Shown piece by piece: positions 863-56,435 of a DNA stretch of 64,000 nt. The stretch lies in the NCBI GenBank assembly GCA_963668115.1, contig OY764147.1, positions 2,317,761 to 2,381,760 on the forward strand, given 5' to 3'. Positions within the stretch are counted from its first letter, which is position 1; every line of letters starts with the position of its first letter. Below the pieces are notes generated by a model. That model did not search any database. It had not been told where the DNA came from and saw nothing but the letters and a program-made list of their open reading frames with translations. This DNA comes from Dehalococcoidia bacterium. Lineage in GTDB: Bacteria; Chloroflexota; Dehalococcoidia; Plut-88900. The translations under genes were made by a program, and so were the position numbers.

Positions 863-1948
863 ATGACGCAATTCACCGAGACCATAACCTACAACATCGA
901 ATGCCCGAATAAGGACGGGGGGAAGGTAATCAAGGTCGGGGTGAGAAACGGGCATCAGCGTTACCAGTGCAAGAAATGCGGGTCGAAATTCCGAGACCCT
1001 AGCATCGCCAAAGGAAAGCAGTATCCCATCAAGCAGGTGGGTGCGGCTTTGGCGTGGTACTTCGACGGACTCTCATACCGCGAAGTCGCAAGGCAGTTGA
1101 AGAATACCTTTGACATTCCCGAACCGACCGACAACACCATCTACCAGTGGGTACAAGCGTATTCCGACGAAGCCGTAAGGGAGGCAAAGGACGTAAAGGC
1201 TCACACCGGCCCCGTATGGTCGGCTGACGAAACCGACGTGACGATAGACGGCGAGCATTACTGGCTATGGTTCGTCATGGACGATGAAACCCGATACGTT
1301 CTCGCGGCCCTACTCACGCATCGGAGAGACGCCAAAGAGGCCGCTAAGGTCATGCGAATCGCAAAGGACGCCGCCGTTAATCTCCCCATGAGCATCCGCA
1401 CCGACCGGATGAAGTCCTACCCGTCGGCAATCAAGAACGTCTTTGACGGCAAGGTTAAACACGTACAGACGGACGGACTCGCCGCCGTTATCAACAACAA
1501 CCTTGTCGAGCGGCTGAATGGCACGATGAAGGAACGGGACAAGGTTTTCAGGGGATTCAAGCGGCTGGACTCGGCCCAGCAGTACGTTAACGGGTGGGTG
1601 CTGGACTACAACTTTTTCAGGCCGCACATGGCCCTATCGGACGGCAAGGCAACCCCCGCAACTCTCGCCAATGCCAAACCCCCATTCCACAGTTGGGAGG
1701 ATGTGGCCCGGACTGTAGAGGCTGTCGGGAGAGTGCCAAAGGCCACGCGGCCAAAGGAAACGCCGGGCTTCAAGCCGAAGAAGAAGCTAGGGAGACGGCG
1801 CACCAAACCACGCGGGCGGGCGGCTTTGGAACTGGAAAAGCTAGGGCGGCCCATAGGCGACCGCGCACCTAAGAAACGCGAGCGTCGGCCCGTCGCTCAC
1901 TCGGAGCGGCCCACAACCCAAAAGAGCCTAGACACGGGGAAGCGGTAG
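863..1948 (+). CDS. IS6-family DDE transposase with an N-terminal zinc-ribbon
   Basis: N-terminal CPNKDGG...RYQCKKCGSKF zinc ribbon. DDE region WSADETDVTIDGEHYWLWFVMDDETRYVLAALL...TDRMKSYPSAI resembles the IS26/IS240-type motifs DETYVK...YLYRAVD...TDKLxSY. Basic C-terminal tail. Confidence 0.8.
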   Translation: MTQFTETITYNIECPNKDGGKVIKVGVRNGHQRYQCKKCGSKFRDPSIAKGKQYPIKQVGAALAWYFDGLSYREVARQLKNTFDIPEPTDNTIYQWVQAYSDEAVREAKDVKAHTGPVWSADETDVTIDGEHYWLWFVMDDETRYVLAALLTHRRDAKEAAKVMRIAKDAAVNLPMSIRTDRMKSYPSAIKNVFDGKVKHVQTDGLAAVINNNLVERLNGTMKERDKVFRGFKRLDSAQQYVNGWVLDYNFFRPHMALSDGKATPATLANAKPPFHSWEDVARTVEAVGRVPKATRPKETPGFKPKKKLGRRRTKPRGRAALELEKLGRPIGDRAPKKRERRPVAHSERPTTQKSLDTGKR

Positions 1949-13109: not shown

Positions 13110-13877
13110 ATGCTAGACCTATCTGATAGCCACACCCATCTCGAAGACTACGGAGACCAGCTCCCGGATGTCGTCCAGCGCGCCCGGGACGTCGGTGTCA
13201 GGCGCATCATCACCGCAGGCAGCTCCCTCGAATCTTCCAGGGCCGCCGTCCGCATCGCCGACGAGTACCCCGACATCTACGCGGGCGTCGGCATCCACCC
13301 CCACGCCGCCCACCTCAACATCACCGAGGAAACCTTCGAGGAGCTTGCCGGTCTGGCTCAGTCCAGCGAGAAGGTCCTGATGATCTGTGAACCGGGCCTC
13401 GACTACTTCAAAAGCAAGGCCCCGCGAGAGCTCCAGCAGGACGTCTTCCGCCGACACCTCTGCCTTGCCCGGGAGCTGCAACTGCCCGTGGTATTCCACA
13501 GTAGAGAGGCCTACTGGGACTGCCTGCGCATCCTCAAGGAGGAACGAGTCTACGAGGTCGGGGCCATCATGCACTACTTCGTCGCCGACCAGCGTATCGC
13601 CGAGGAGTGCATCGACATGGGAATCTACGTCTCCTTCTCCAAGACCCTGCTCGCCCTCCCCCACCTCCACCCGATAGCCGCGTCCCTGCCCATGGAGTAC
13701 ATGGTCATAGAGACCGATTCCTTCCCCCAGCCCTGGAAAAAGAAGAACCCCCTGGAACCCGCCCAGCTAATCCGCGTCGCTGAAAAAGTCGCGGAGCTAC
13801 GCGGCATCACCGTCGAGGAAGTCGCCGCTCAGACCACGGCCAACCTGAAGTACGTGTTGGGGCCTAAGCTACTATAG
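13110..13877 (+). CDS. tatD: TatD family metal-dependent hydrolase/DNase
   Basis: N-terminal SDSHTHLED; GIHPH; full-length TatD architecture. Confidence 0.85.
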   Translation: MLDLSDSHTHLEDYGDQLPDVVQRARDVGVRRIITAGSSLESSRAAVRIADEYPDIYAGVGIHPHAAHLNITEETFEELAGLAQSSEKVLMICEPGLDYFKSKAPRELQQDVFRRHLCLARELQLPVVFHSREAYWDCLRILKEERVYEVGAIMHYFVADQRIAEECIDMGIYVSFSKTLLALPHLHPIAASLPMEYMVIETDSFPQPWKKKNPLEPAQLIRVAEKVAELRGITVEEVAAQTTANLKYVLGPKLL

Positions 13878-14721
13878 GGGTGTCGTCCCGGTTGGCCCAC
13901 TCACCCATCGAGCCGTCGTAGTTGCTGACGTTTTCGTATCCCAGGAGCCTGAGGGCAAACATCACGTGTGCCGCGCGAATTCCGCCCTGTCAGTAGGTGA
14001 CTACCTTCTTCTCCGGCGTGATCCCCGCCGACGCATAGAGCTCCCTTAGCTCGTCGGGCGGCAGGAAGGTCCTGAACTCGTCGTCGGTGACCGCTTTCGT
14101 CCACTCGATGTGCACGGTGTCCGGCAGGTGCCCGCCCCGCTTGTTCCCCCGGGTCTGCACCCCCGTGTACTCGTCGTCCGTCCGAACGTCCAGCGTGACC
14201 CATCCCGGCTCGTTCAGCCGCTCCTTCAGTTGGTCGAGGGTGCAGTTGTATTCCGGGTGCATGGTCGGGGTGAAGGTGGCTGGCGGGTACGGCGACATCG
14301 GCCTGCCGCTGTGGTACGTCGCCAGGGGTGCAGGCTCCACCGCCCGACCCTCCGCTATCCACTTGTTCCACCCGCCGTTGAGCACCCGAACCTTCTCATG
14401 GCCGTGCATCCGCAGGAGCCACCACAGCCGACCCGCGTACAGCCCGCCCCAGTCGTCGTAGGCTATTACGTCGTGCTGGTCGCCGATGCCTACCTGCCCC
14501 ATCTCCTCGGCGAACTGGTCGGGGCCCATGACCAGCGCCCGGTTGTCGGGGTCCTTGAAGTAGTTGCGGTTCAGTCCCATCGCCCCCGGAATATGCCCCC
14601 TCTTGTACCCGTCGATGGGCCCCATATCCACGATCCTCAGGTTGGGGTCATCTAGGTGCTCTGCCAGCCATTCCGTCTCGACGATGAGGTCCGGTCTGTT
14701 GTGAGTGTTTTGGTTAGCCAT
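13864..14721 (-). CDS. two-domain rhodanese / 3-mercaptopyruvate-type sulfurtransferase. Candidate selenoprotein: the in-frame TGA at + coordinates 13990-13992 coincides with the catalytic Cys position (…EKKVVTY-U-QGGIRAAHVMFALRLLGYENVSNYDGSMGEWANRDDTPIVA).
   Basis: The annotated ORF 13990-14721 stops at TGA immediately before the conserved active-site loop. Reading through in the same frame gives the canonical rhodanese C-terminus (CxGGxRA...LGY.NV.NYDGS..EW) and ends at TAG 13864-13866. An SD (AGGAGAGGAG) precedes the ATG at 14721. Confidence 0.65.
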
Positions 14722-14740
14722 ATCTTGTCCTGCTCCTCTC

Positions 14741-15097
14741 CTAACTCCCCACCGCCCCCTCCAACGCCTCCACGTTGTACCCCAACACCGGCGCCGACCC
14801 CCCGACCACTATCGGTCTCTTCAGTAGCGCCGGCTCCTGCGTCATCAGGTCCAGCTTTTCATCGTCGGAAAGGGCGTCGACATCCAAACCCAGCTTCTTC
14901 ACCGCCCGACTCTTCCGTGAGAATAGCTGCTCCATGGGTATGATCTCCAGCAGACCCTCGATCTCTTCACGGGACAGGGGCTCCTTGAATATATCCCGCT
15001 CTATGTGGTCGATTTCTTTCTGCGAAAGAAACTCCTTCGCCCTTCTGCAGGAAGTTCAGGAGCGTTTCGTGTACAGCGTTATCCCGGTTGCAGCCAT
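14741..15097 (-). CDS. Spx/ArsC-family thiol-redox protein. Candidate selenoprotein (UxxC): the in-frame TGA at + coordinates 15056-15058 replaces the first Cys of the CxxC motif (MAATGITLYTKRS-U-TSCRRAKEFL...).
   Basis: Strong RBS CGAGGAGGAAATC precedes the ATG at 15097. The translation aligns along its whole length with Bacillus Spx (VTLYTSPSCTSCRKA...ERNIFSEPLS...LLRRPII...VGYNEDE), with the TGA at the Cys10 position. The downstream ORF 14741-14935 is the C-terminal remainder in the same frame. Confidence 0.65.
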
Positions 15098-15270
15098 GAT
15101 TTCCTCCTCGCGATTGCGGTAAAGCTTATGGGGCCATTCTACGCGCCGACCCCCTCCCAGTCCACTGTATGTACTGGGATTTGTTTGATTTGATGATGGG
15201 TTTTGACTTTGCAAGGGTGATGTTCATGTCTGATTCGCGATGGGAAGGTGGGATATGATAGGAATGGGCG

Positions 15271-15690
15271 ATGATCAATAGGTACTACAAATATTCGGAG
15301 TTGACCGGAAGGGTTATCGGGTGCGCGATGACGGTGCACTCGGCCTTGGGCAACGGCTTCCAGGAGGTGATCTACCAGCGGGCATTGGAGATCGAGATGG
15401 CCGACCAAGGGCTTTCCTTCAGCCGGGAACATGAAATGCCTATCTACTACAAAGAGCAGCAGATCGGTGCCAGAAGAGTGGATTTTCTGGTCGATGGCCT
15501 GGTCTCCGTTGAGCTGAAGGCTGTCATAAACCTCGAAGATGTTCACCTTGCGCAGGCCATCAACTACTTGGAGGCCTATGACCTTGAGGTAGGACTGCTA
15601 ATCAACTTCGGTGCCAGAAGCCTCCAATTCAAAAGGGTCGCTAACGGCAAATTCAAACAGAAGAACCAGGTAAACCCGGCAATCCCATAA
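15271..15690 (+). CDS. GxxExxY family protein (PD-(D/E)xK-like)
   Basis: Motif GNGFQEVIY (G-x-x-E-x-x-Y) and overall length match the GxxExxY family. Confidence 0.65.
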   Translation: MINRYYKYSELTGRVIGCAMTVHSALGNGFQEVIYQRALEIEMADQGLSFSREHEMPIYYKEQQIGARRVDFLVDGLVSVELKAVINLEDVHLAQAINYLEAYDLEVGLLINFGARSLQFKRVANGKFKQKNQVNPAIP

Positions 15691-40952: not shown

Positions 40953-44090
<3,138 letters not shown>

Positions 44091-44138
44091 TGCATTAAGA
44101 CACGCACAGAACGTTCAACTTCTCTATTCGGCACATGG

Positions 44139-44301: not shown

Positions 44302-44376
44302 CGCGGGGTGGAGCAGTGGCAGCTCGTCGGGCTCATAACCCGAAGGTCGTTGGTTCGAATCCAACCCCCGCTACCA
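44302..44376 (+). tRNA. initiator tRNA-Met (CAU anticodon)
   Basis: CGCGGGGTGGAGCAG…TCGGGCTCATAACCCGAAGG…GGTTCGAATCCAACCCCCGCTACCA. Matches the E. coli tRNA-fMet layout, including the three G:C pairs in the anticodon stem and an encoded CCA. Confidence 0.85.
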
Positions 44377-52749: not shown

Positions 52750-54384
52750 GTGGTTATTGCCACCGACGAACGAAAATTCAACGTCATACGCAGCTATGTC
52801 GATACCGAATCACCGGAGTTCCAGGAGAATAGGGCCCACCAGATCGGCTTGCTGGAACAGTTGAGGGATCGGCTGGAGATCGTAAAACAGGGCGGTCCCG
52901 AGGCCTCCGTCGCCCGGCATAAGGCCCGGGGCAAGATGACCGCCCGCGAGCGCATCGACAAGCTGTTGGACCATGACCGGCCCTTCTTGGAGCTCAGCGC
53001 ACTAGCTGCCTGGGAAATGTACGACGGACAGGCCCATTCCGCAGGCATCGTCACGGGCATAGGCGTGGTCAGCGGCCGCGAGTGCATGATTATGGCCAAC
53101 GACGCCACGGTGAAGGCCGGCGCCTACTACCCTCTCACCGTCAAGAAGCACCTCCGTGCCCAGGAAATCGCCCAGCAGAACCGGCTCCCGTGCATCTACC
53201 TCGTGGATTCCGCCGGCGCATTCCTTCCCCTTCAAGCCGACGTCTTCCCCGACAAGGAGCATTTCGGCCGGGTCTTCTACAACGAGTCGGTAATGTCGGC
53301 ACAGGGGATTGCCCAGATCGCAGTCGTGATGGGCTTCTGCACCGCCGGGGGTGCTTATGTACCTGCCATCGCCGATGAGTCGATTATCGTCAAGGGAACG
53401 GGGTCGATCTTCATCGGGGGCCCGGCTCTCGTGAAGGCTGCTACCGGTGAGGAAGTCACCGTTGAGGAACTCGGCGGCGCTGACGTTCACACCCGCATCT
53501 CCGGCGTCTCCGACCACTACGCCGCCAATGACGAGGAAGCCATCGCCATCACCCGCGAGATAGTCTCCGGCATCCCTATGAAGAAGGAACTCCCGTGGGA
53601 GCTCACCCCACCCCGCCCCCCGGCCTACGACCCCGAGGAGATATACGGACTCCTCCCGAAAGACCTCCGCACCATCATCGACACCCGGGAGGTCATCGCC
53701 CGCCTCGTCGACGGCTCCGAGTTTCAGGAGTTCAAAGCCCTCTACGGCGATTCGCTGGTCTGCGGATTTGGCCGGGTCATGGGCTACCCTATCGGCATCG
53801 TGGCCAACAACGGCATCCTCTTCTCGGAGTCCTCCCAGAAGGGCGCCCACTTCGTGGAGCTGTGCTGCCAGCGAAAGGTGCCCCTGCTCTTCATGCAGAA
53901 CATCACCGGTTTCATGGTGGGTAAGGAGTACGAGAACCGCGGCCTGGCCAAGGACGGGGCGAAGCTGGTCATGGCTGTGTCCAACGCCCAGGTACCCAAA
54001 TTCACCCTGATTTTCGGCGGGTCCTTCGGGGCTGGAAACTTCGGGATGTGCGGCCGGGCCTACAACTCCCGCCAACTCTGGATGTGGCCCAACGCCCGGA
54101 TCTCCGTGATGGGGGGTCGGGAGGCGGCAAACACCCTCCTTACCCTCCGCATGGACAACCTGAAGGTCAAGGGCGAGTCCATGACCGAGCAGGAGCAGGA
54201 CGACTTCAAGAACCCGATCCTGGAGCGCTACGAGACCGAGGGCAGCCCCTACTATTCGACGGCCCGACTCTGGGACGACGGCATCATCGACCCCGCCGAC
54301 ACCCGCATGGTTCTGGCTCTGGGCATCTCCGCTGCCCTCAATGCCCCCGTACCCGACACCCGCTTCGGCGTATTCCGAATGTGA
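52750..54384 (+). CDS. acyl-CoA carboxylase carboxyltransferase (beta) subunit, methylcrotonyl-CoA-carboxylase type; GTG start
   Basis: Carboxyltransferase domains (…GGAYVPA…; [19 protein letters not shown]). About 540 aa, typical of MccB/PccB. Confidence 0.8.
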
Positions 54385-54407
54385 CCCCCTACCAGAAAGC
54401 AACTCCC

Positions 54408-56435
54408 ATGTTTGACAAGGTCCTCATAGCCAACCGGGGCGAGATTGCAGTCCGGGTGATGCGCACCTGCCGGGACATGGGCATCTCCACCGTCGCCGTT
54501 TATTCCGACGCCGACCGAGATGCCCTCCACGTCCGCTTCGCAGACGAGGCTGTCCACGTAGGCCCGGGGCCCGCCACCGACAGCTATCTCAACATCGATG
54601 CCGTGGTTTCGGCTGCCTTGAGCGTTGGGGCACAGGCCGTTCATCCGGGCTACGGGTTCCTATCCGAGAACCCCAATTTCGCCGAGGCCTGCGCCTCCGC
54701 CGGCATAGTCTTCATCGGCCCCTCCCCCAACATCCTTAGGTTGCTGGGTGACAAATCGGAGGCCAAGAAGCGCGCCCAGCAAGCGGGCGTTCCCGTGGTC
54801 CCCGGCTACTACGTCGAGGGCCTCAGCCCCGAGAAAGTCACCCAGAAGGCCGAGGAGATAGGCTATCCCGTCCTCATCAAGGCCGCTTTCGGTGGTGGAG
54901 GCCGCGGCATGCGTACAGTCTCCGAACCGGGGGAGCTGGAAGAGGCGATGGCCGGCGCCCGACGCGAGGCCCTCTCCTCCTTCGGCAACGACACCGTTAT
55001 CTTAGAGAAGCATGTCGTGCGGCCACGGCATATCGAGGTGCAGATTATCGGCGACACTCATGGCAACTTGCTGAGCCTCGGGGAGCGGGAGTGCTCCGTG
55101 CAGCGACGCTTCCAGAAGGTCATCGAGGAGACGCCTTCCGTGGCCGTGACGCCGAAGATCCGGAAGGGCCTGGAAAGCTCGGCTCTGGCCCTTGCCGCTG
55201 CCGTCAGCTACACCAACGCAGGCACCGTCGAGTTCCTGCTGGATGCCGACGGCAACTTCTACTTCCTTGAAGTCAACCCCCGACTCCAGGTGGAGCACCC
55301 GGTGACCGAGTGGGTCACGGGTCTAGACCTCGTAAGGCTCCAGCTTATAGCCGCCTCCGGGGAGAAACTGCCCATCAGCAAGTCGGATGTGAAGGCCCGA
55401 GGCCACTCCATCGAGGCACGGGTCTATGCCGAAGACCCTGGGGCGGGATATATGCCCGGCGCGGGTCCTCTTGTCCGATTCTCTCCGCCATCGCTGCCGT
55501 GGGTGCGCCACGACGTGGGCGTCTACGAGGGGTTCGAAGTGCCAGTCTTCTATGACTCCCTTCTCGCCAAGATCGCCGTCTATGGCGAGGACCGCCAACA
55601 GGCTGTCCGTCGCCTAAGGGACACCCTAGACGCATATGTGGTATCCGGGGTCCCGACCAACCTCCAGATGCTTCGAGTCATCGCCCAGGACCCGGACTTC
55701 GAGTCGGGCGCCATAGACACGGAGTACGTCGGGCGCAGTATCGAACCCGCCCTGGCCCCTGCGGGCGAGCTTCCCGTTCAGGCCCTGGCCTCGGCCATAG
55801 CCCACCGGTTGGTCACCTCGGGGCTGGCCGGTTACGAATCGATGCAGGACAATCGGGTGGCCGGCGATGTCTGGAGCAGAGCCGGGGCCTGGCGCATGGG
55901 TAGACAGGACATGCTGTACGCCTTCAGGCACTCCGGTGGAAACGTGACCGCCAACGTCTCCAGCAGGCCCGGCGCCCTCGCTTGGAAGGTACAGACCCCC
56001 GACACCTCCTTCGATCTCTCCCTCTCCCTCACCCCCGACGGGCGCACCATCGCCACCGTGGACGAGGAAACATGGGCCGTCGAGGTTGCTGCGACCGACG
56101 ATGGACTGCTAGTCCACTACAACAACGCCGACTATCTGCTGGCCACGCCCGACCAGATCTACACCGGGTCAGGGGGCGGACAGGCCGTGGGCCCCGGCGC
56201 GGAGACCGAGATCACCGCTCACCTGCCCGGAGTGGTCGCGCAGGTGAGGGTCAAGGAGGGCGACGAGGTGTCGGCGAGGCAGACCCTGGTGGTGCTGGAA
56301 GCCATGAAAATGGAGCACCACATCACCGCCCCTTACGACGGCGTCGTGGCCCGGGTCTCCTGCGAGGCCGGGATGCAGGTGATGAAGGGCGCATCCCTGC
56401 TGGAACTGGAGCCCGCCGGGGCTAGTGGGTCATAA
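54408..56435 (+). CDS. acyl-CoA carboxylase biotin-carboxylase/BCCP (alpha) subunit. Start is the ATG at 54408; the annotated ORF 54048 has a spurious N-terminal extension.
   Basis: MFDKVLIANRGEIAVRVMRTC biotin-carboxylase N-terminus, an ATP-grasp domain, and a C-terminal biotinyl motif EAMKMEH. Confidence 0.85.
   Translation: MFDKVLIANRGEIAVRVMRTCRDMGISTVAVYSDADRDALHVRFADEAVHVGPGPATDSYLNIDAVVSAALSVGAQAVHPGYGFLSENPNFAEACASAGIVFIGPSPNILRLLGDKSEAKKRAQQAGVPVVPGYYVEGLSPEKVTQKAEEIGYPVLIKAAFGGGGRGMRTVSEPGELEEAMAGARREALSSFGNDTVILEKHVVRPRHIEVQIIGDTHGNLLSLGERECSVQRRFQKVIEETPSVAVTPKIRKGLESSALALAAAVSYTNAGTVEFLLDADGNFYFLEVNPRLQVEHPVTEWVTGLDLVRLQLIAASGEKLPISKSDVKARGHSIEARVYAEDPGAGYMPGAGPLVRFSPPSLPWVRHDVGVYEGFEVPVFYDSLLAKIAVYGEDRQQAVRRLRDTLDAYVVSGVPTNLQMLRVIAQDPDFESGAIDTEYVGRSIEPALAPAGELPVQALASAIAHRLVTSGLAGYESMQDNRVAGDVWSRAGAWRMGRQDMLYAFRHSGGNVTANVSSRPGALAWKVQTPDTSFDLSLSLTPDGRTIATVDEETWAVEVAATDDGLLVHYNNADYLLATPDQIYTGSGGGQAVGPGAETEITAHLPGVVAQVRVKEGDEVSARQTLVVLEAMKMEHHITAPYDGVVARVSCEAGMQVMKGASLLELEPAGASGS

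Follow-up and report, generated by a model that had tools for sequence, protein, structure and literature searches.

A covariation-supported candidate bSECIS hairpin behind the in-frame UGA of an ArsC/Spx-family gene in a Dehalococcoidia bacterium

In E. coli fdhF, the SECIS is a minimal hairpin that begins 11 nt past the UGA; its 5' arm has a bulged U, and its 6-nt loop contains G23 and U24. The consensus for bacterial SECIS elements (bSECIS) in bSECISearch (Zhang & Gladyshev 2005, as summarised in PMC13188914 Fig. 2) describes an apical loop of 3-9 nt on an upper stem of 4-16 bp, a G within the first two loop positions, typically in the arrangement N1-G-[G|U]-N-N2, a UGA-to-loop distance of 16-37 nt and a folding energy of -7.5 kcal/mol or lower (PMC13188914). 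'ArsC-like' selenoproteins were already listed in 2006 (PMC1794560), and the selenoproteome of the Global Ocean Sampling (GOS) lists Sec-rhodanese families as well as a family termed 'Arsenate reductase 2' (cd03032, UxxC), represented by 42 Sec and 238 Cys sequences (PMC2398784). In BSepDB, MAGs of Dehalococcoidia carry 46-49 selenoprotein genes per genome, which puts them among the bacteria richest in selenoproteins (PMC13326102).

Here we analyse a stretch of 64 kb from a Dehalococcoidia bacterium, referred to below as the window, in which a gene of the ArsC/Spx family is interrupted by an in-frame UGA. We conclude that a hairpin within the coding sequence, at 15040-15022 of the minus strand and termed hairpin A, is very probably the bSECIS of this gene, and that the gene very probably encodes a selenoprotein with a UxxC redox motif. 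The features of the locus are collected in Table 1; RNA positions are numbered with the U of the UGA as 1.

Table 1. Positions in the window of the Spx-like gene, the hairpins downstream of its UGA, and the adjacent rhodanese gene
Feature	Coordinates	Strand	Remarks
Predicted selenoprotein gene, ArsC/Spx family, 118 aa	14741..15097	-	Read-through translation, profile matches
Start codon ATG of the ArsC/Spx-family gene	15097-15095	-	
Stop codon TAG of the ArsC/Spx-family gene	14743-14741	-	
Shine-Dalgarno-like GAGGAGG	15103..15109	-	5 nt before ATG; read from sequence
In-frame UGA, putative Sec codon, codon 14	15056..15058	-	Same codon in 38 Sec-form loci
Hairpin A, 5' arm GCGAAGGA	15033..15040	-	RNA 19-26
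Hairpin A, apical loop GUU	15030..15032	-	RNA 27-29
Hairpin A, 3' arm UCUUUCGC	15022..15029	-	RNA 30-37
Hairpin B, UUUCUUUC-GCA-GAAAGAAA	15013..15031	-	RNA 28-35/39-46; MFE choice in some frames
Tandem-rhodanese gene, 285 aa when read through	13864-14721	-	ATG 14721; own GGAG
In-frame TGA of the rhodanese gene	13992-13990	-	At catalytic Cys position, VVTY-U-QGGIRAAH

When the UGA is read through, the predicted protein starts with MAATGITLYTKRS-U-TSC-RRAKEF..., also written MAATGITLYTKRS-U-TSCRRAKEFLSQ..., and a single Pfam ArsC domain (PF03960, E=4.8e-19, residues 9-113) spans the UGA. The protein also passes TIGR01617 (Spx/MgsR/ArsC-related), where it scores 90.4 bits and the cutoff is 75. 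Among solved structures, its best relatives are those of Spx (PDB 1Z3E and 6GHB, E=4e-20), the redox-sensing, RNA-polymerase-binding regulator of Bacillota. The likeness to Spx extends over residues 6-111, includes the RPI motif and places the U on Cys10 of the CxxC motif (C10-T-S-C13) of B. subtilis Spx, so that the redox motif of the window protein reads U-T-S-C, a UxxC in which Sec replaces the first Cys. Spx proteins, however, have 131-132 residues compared with 118 here, which means that the Spx C-terminal tail is absent from the window protein, and the loop aligned to Spx 'TEDGTDE' is shortened by two residues. A bona fide Spx regulator was rejected on the scores of the dedicated profiles (NF002459, 88.3 vs 123; NF009885, 67.3 vs 152; NF009210, 57.5 vs 159), and a regulatory role for the protein is not supported.

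The profile NF041106, 'ArsC family (seleno)protein' (ArsC_rel_Se_1), likewise describes an ArsC-family selenoprotein, but the window protein reaches only 34.1 bits against its cutoff of 85; this identity was therefore rejected, and the protein is better placed in a different ArsC-family clade. Judged by its matches to PF03960, TIGR01617 and the Spx structures and by the U-T-S-C motif, it fits the definition of 'Arsenate reductase 2' (cd03032 ArsC_Spx). The thioredoxin-like fold, the UxxC motif, the existence of Cys forms and the marine or environmental origin are common to both. What sets the window gene apart is its occurrence in Dehalococcoidia and, within the close clade, its position directly upstream of a Sec-rhodanese gene. 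On its other side, across an intergenic region of 173 bp, lies a divergent gene for a 139-aa PD-(D/E)XK_3 protein (15271-15690 of the plus strand; PF13366, E=9.6e-38).

Homologues were collected from several sources. A genome scan yielded 10 loci, all in Dehalococcoidia MAGs, with 48-94% protein identity to the Spx-like protein; seven look-ups of N-terminally truncated database proteins provided 8 further loci, and a metagenome scan another 24. No relatives were found in a scan of viral contigs, and the closest relatives are Dehalococcoidia MAGs. In all 38 Sec-form loci, which stem from independent assemblies and reach down to ~36% protein identity, a TGA occupies the same codon and the reading frame is kept on both sides of it. 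Twenty-nine of the 38 are distinct over the 55 nt that follow the UGA and make up the comparative set used below. Five more distant homologues (L035, L037, L040, L041, L042) have a Cys at the position of the UGA.

All 23 close protein-database homologues (P0001-P0023; loci L011-L018) are N-terminally truncated calls: they are 64-138 aa long, cover 44-83% of the query, start at internal Met or Val codons after the TGA and are unnamed. Such truncation is to be expected where gene finders stop at a Sec codon, and the 23 entries are a systematic mis-annotation of the Spx-like selenoprotein. A global reassignment of TGA was rejected as an explanation, since many other ORFs of the window terminate at TGA, which is thus a normal stop codon here. 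A further observation concerns the codons around the UGA: in ten relatives that vary freely elsewhere, codons 11-13 and 15 (AAA CGC UCC (UGA) ACU; 15050-15067, minus strand) show zero synonymous variation, which would point to selection on the surroundings of the UGA in addition to the hairpin.

Hairpin A has the form GCGAAGGA-GUU-UCUUUCGC (the 19-mer GCGAAGGAGUUUCUUUCGC), with 8 bp, a stem that begins 15 nt past the UGA and a loop that begins 23 nt past it. The comparison of homologues used a codon-anchored alignment (A2), which has neither gaps nor indels over the 55 nt next to the UGA. Across the 29 distinct Sec-form homologues, 93.5% of the 232 cells of the hairpin are standard pairs, compared with a shuffle mean of 85.9% and with 37-69% for slid registers; none of 500 shuffles reaches the observed pairing, and none reaches the observed covariation score, but the shuffle control ignores phylogeny and, because the homologues are related, overstates the significance of both. 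RNAalifold, run without a given structure, recovers the core of the hairpin (20-25/31-36).

Three pairs of hairpin A show double changes in the 29 homologues: pair 23-33 (AU 17, GC 12), pair 26-30 (AU 16, CG 5) and pair 20-36 (CG 23, UA 3, UG 2), these being counts of homologues and not of independent compensatory events. Several substitutions in the 5' arm are non-synonymous and are matched by synonymous ones in the 3' arm: Ala GCG to Val GUG goes with Ser UCG to UCA, and Lys AAG to Arg AGA or AGG goes with Leu CUU to CUC. The stem has 6-8 bp in all 29 homologues and the UGA-to-loop spacing is 20-23 nt. The loop is G[G/U]N throughout (GUU 18, GGC 3, GUG 3, GUC 3, GGU 1, GGA 1), with G27 identical in at least 90% of the sequences. 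In one homologue (L021) the hairpin (GGGCCAG-GGA-CUGGCUC, -10.6 kcal/mol) lies 3 nt closer to the UGA, at a spacing of 20 nt, so that the register has moved and the structure is kept. Nine distant homologues (L009, L010, L017, L023, L026, L029, L031, L033, L036) have an extra lower helix flanking hairpin A, for example CCUGCC...GGCAGG in L009 and GGGACGU...ACGUCCC in L023, the alignment position of which is not fixed; the window clade is without a convincing lower helix.

The 18 homologues that do not belong to the clade of the window, with protein identities of 53% or less, were used alone to train a covariance model. Run against the 64-kb window, this leave-clade-out model picks out a single site, 15058-15004 of the minus strand, with 50.9 bits (E=9e-11) and all 8 pairs standard, and its runner-up in the window has 12.1 bits; a sequence-only model from the same alignment gives 35.5 bits at the locus. 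In Rfam, no family reaches its gathering threshold at the locus, and at E<=10 over 13800-15300 there is only a chance snoRNA match of 12.4 bits.

Compared with the bSECIS consensus, hairpin A has a loop of 3 nt with G in first position, a stem of 8 bp, a spacing of 23 nt and an energy of -9.7 kcal/mol, all within the model. If the A26-U30 pair is opened, the loop becomes AGUUU (5 nt) and conforms to N1-G-[G|U]-N-N2, with A-U as the N1-N2 pair. All four consensus features coincide at the same place in 28 of the 29 Sec forms (mean -9.8 kcal/mol) and in none of the five Cys forms. No feature of hairpin A lies outside the model; below its upper stem there is no convincing lower stem in the window clade, and there is one in distant homologues. 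The likeness to the SECIS elements of E. coli fdhF and fdnG consists of a hairpin past the UGA whose apical loop contains a G-U that is presumably offered to SelB. However, the stem of hairpin A starts 15 nt and not 11 nt past the UGA, the loop G is at 27 and not at 23, there is no bulged U, the loop has 3-5 nt instead of 6, and sequence similarity is zero, so that hairpin A falls outside the fdhF-type definition.

The earlier note on this DNA had placed a candidate bSECIS at 14990-15058, inside the coding sequence just after the Spx-like UGA, and hairpin A indeed lies within that region with the four consensus features. The RNA that it quoted 3' of the UGA is exact (minus strand 15055 to 15016, ACUUCCUGCAGAAGGGCGAAGGAGUUUCUUUCGCAGAAAG, next to the in-frame TGA 15058-15056). 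Conservation in orthologues, the lack of which it named as a possible refutation, is borne out for hairpin A, kept with compensatory changes in 28 of the 29 distinct Sec-form homologues. The stem that it drew, CUGCAGAAGG paired to UUUCUUUCGCAG (RNA 9-18/30-39), is not the conserved one. The observation is thus partly confirmed: the sequence and the UGA are right and the stem is wrong.

As hairpin A lies in coding sequence, its conservation has to be separated from that of the protein. One could suppose that the hairpin is a by-product of the ArsC/Spx peptide motif (AKEFLSQ), with the UGA being otherwise read through, a true stop or a pseudogene lesion. It speaks for this that the whole family, with its Cys forms, shares the motif R-[KR]-A-[KR]-x-[FW]-L, that the single-sequence fold statistics given below are weak, and that no Sec machinery is encoded within the 64-kb window. 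Nevertheless, when 2000 synonymous recodings of TSCRRAKEFLSQKEIDHIE were generated with the codon usage of the window, only 0.2% contained a model-conforming hairpin as stable as the native one at -9.7 kcal/mol, and 0.9% reached -7.5 kcal/mol; the MFE of positions 4-54 was matched by 25% of the recodings. Synonymous sites are frozen specifically within hairpin A: among ten close relatives with 88-94% protein identity, synonymous codons differ by a pairwise mean of 0.076 across the seven codons of the hairpin and of 0.41 across the other 80 scorable codons, and no more than 2 of 81 seven-codon windows show so low a value. The sole variable hairpin codon, AAG/AAA, toggles between G24-U32 and A24-U32. 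The hairpin is also absent from the Cys forms, where, in a control of five sequences only, none reaches -7.5 kcal/mol and 3-5 of the 8 pairs form at the homologous columns. Together with the matched Ala-to-Val and Lys-to-Arg substitutions, the maintenance of the UGA and its flanking frame in 38 loci, and the ordinary use of TGA as a stop elsewhere in the window, these results make the by-product explanation very unlikely. The protein sequence does not account for hairpin A, and the synonymous sites of the hairpin are constrained.

Alternative pairings of the same RNA must also be weighed, and here folding of the window sequence is of little help. The 69-nt stretch gives z = -2.0, with 9 of 200 shuffles folding as well, and other folding frames give z-scores of -0.7 to -1.4, so that on its own the window sequence is unremarkable. 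Single-sequence folding in five frames was rejected as an arbiter of the register, with its inconsistent MFE structures and weak z-scores, and the case for a bSECIS consequently rests on the comparative and codon-aware evidence. Hairpin A itself, which begins 15 nt past the UGA, has an energy of -9.7 kcal/mol in context and of -8.3 kcal/mol as the isolated 19-mer. The longer stem drawn in the earlier note, which closes an 11-nt loop (GCGAAGGAGUU), is extremely unlikely to serve as the functional SECIS. Nine of its 10 pairs are standard and one is an A.C mismatch, a G comes first in the loop, and the energy of the stem, -7.5 kcal/mol, falls exactly on the threshold of the model. Yet hairpin A, with 8 bp, is more stable while using the same 3' arm, the only part of the drawn register that stands, and the two structures are mutually exclusive. 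The drawn stem has an ensemble probability of 0.000 in a 129-nt context, and both its 11-nt loop and its 15-nt spacing are outside the published ranges (3-9 nt and 16-37 nt). Among the homologues it is paired at shuffle level (66.6% vs a mean of 66.1%, reached by 201 of 500 shuffles; slid controls 37-59%), its pair 13-35 is unpaired in 28 of 29, and the covariation check that yielded three compensated pairs for hairpin A yielded none for it. The example cautions that a stem found by eye need not be the conserved one and that single-sequence folding statistics can be uninformative.

A different competitor, mutually exclusive with both of these stems, is hairpin B, which overlaps the 3' arm of hairpin A. 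In the window clade the two hairpins have almost the same energy, and B takes up most of the predicted ensemble; owing to this competition, hairpin A accounts for only ~14% of the ensemble in a 129-nt context. The two might form a two-state element in which hairpins A (19-37) and B (28-46) alternate and tune the efficiency of Sec insertion in the window clade. The near-equality of energies, the flipping of the MFE choice with the folding frame and the fact that B can still pair in several close relatives fit such a switch. However, over the 29 homologues hairpin B is 75.4% paired, barely above the shuffle mean of 72.1% (slid controls 58-66%), one slid register outscores it in covariation, and distant homologues are without it. 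Moreover, purine-rich QKEI codons are trivially complementary to pyrimidine-rich FLS codons. Hairpin B was therefore rejected as a conserved element and is probably an incidental pairing of a pyrimidine tract with a purine tract, and we consider the two-state arrangement highly unlikely. A 5' mini-hairpin, CUUC-N5-GAAG (5-8/14-17), which appears in some close-clade folds, was also rejected: its register changes, or the hairpin is lost, in L012, L013 and the distant homologues, and it was set aside additionally because it would sit inside the ribosome with the UGA in the A site.

With hairpin A as the bSECIS, a working model can be drawn by analogy with the mechanism in E. coli and Moorella, from which we infer SelB binding and Sec insertion via this hairpin. 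While the UGA occupies the A site, the ribosome would enclose the RNA to about +15, and hairpin A would be located where the mRNA enters. SelB, loaded with GTP and Sec-tRNA(Sec), would use its C-terminal winged-helix domain to bind the apical loop at G-U/G and, competing with RF2, would bring Sec-tRNA(Sec) to the UGA. The predicted product is a full-length, 118-aa thiol/selenol oxidoreductase-type protein of UxxC type, with Sec in place of the first Cys.

The window itself encodes no selA, selB, selD or tRNA-Sec: ARAGORN and Rfam detect tRNA-Met only, and Pfam scans of ~57 ORFs detect no Sel domains. The case for Sec decoding therefore comes from two Sec-type UGAs and from the relatives of the organism. 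The second of these UGAs is in the tandem-rhodanese gene, which starts 19 nt past the stop of the Spx-like gene. Its frame runs on for 41 codons past the TGA, to 13864, completing a second rhodanese domain (residues 161-277), whereas the protein given by gene callers has 243 aa and not the full 285. In L001-L008 and L013, both the TGA and a stem-loop behind it are conserved. The stem-loop consists of a lower stem, CAGGGCGG/UUUGCCCU, and an upper stem, which is UACGUGC-GGC-GCACGUA in most relatives and is weaker and different in the window and in L002. On this evidence, the second UGA would provide independent support for Sec decoding by the organism.

The Spx-like and rhodanese genes are a probable two-selenoprotein operon; the synteny of Spx-like, rhodanese and TatD genes is found in relatives at 66% protein identity or more and not in the 48-53% clade. 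It could be imagined that in marine Dehalococcoidia the UxxC protein and the Sec-rhodanese form a dedicated, co-transcribed relay, with the clade-specific alternation of hairpins A and B tuning Sec insertion, but we regard this combined idea as unlikely. Within it, one possibility is that the UxxC protein would resolve a selenenyl-persulfide or selenosulfide intermediate on the Sec-rhodanese.

Some other features of the window were noted in passing. A 23S rRNA gene (40954-44092, plus strand) is followed by the tRNA-Met (CAT) gene (44302-44376, plus strand); at Rfam gathering thresholds there is no 16S rRNA upstream and no 5S rRNA downstream of the 23S rRNA gene, and the rRNA arrangement looks unlinked. 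An ORF at 863-1948 (plus strand) with DDE_Tnp_IS240/rve transposase domains probably belongs to an insertion sequence. The biotin carboxylase/biotin-carrier ORF at 54048-56435 (plus strand) overlaps the carboxyltransferase ORF at 52750-54384 (plus strand) by ~340 nt; as the first Pfam domain of the former is at residue 121, its true start is probably ~120 codons downstream.

Taken as a whole, hairpin A is an ordinary, well-behaved instance of a known element, in a selenoprotein family that was described in 2008 (PMC2398784), and biologically it adds no new principle. Automatic annotation misses both selenoproteins of the locus, the Spx-like protein and the rhodanese, and with them their redox-active residues. 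The family provides a clean, covariation-supported bSECIS at a fixed position, with a G[G/U]N loop, in homologues down to ~36% protein identity, and such a positive example is useful for SECIS models; in bacteria these are notoriously difficult to define.
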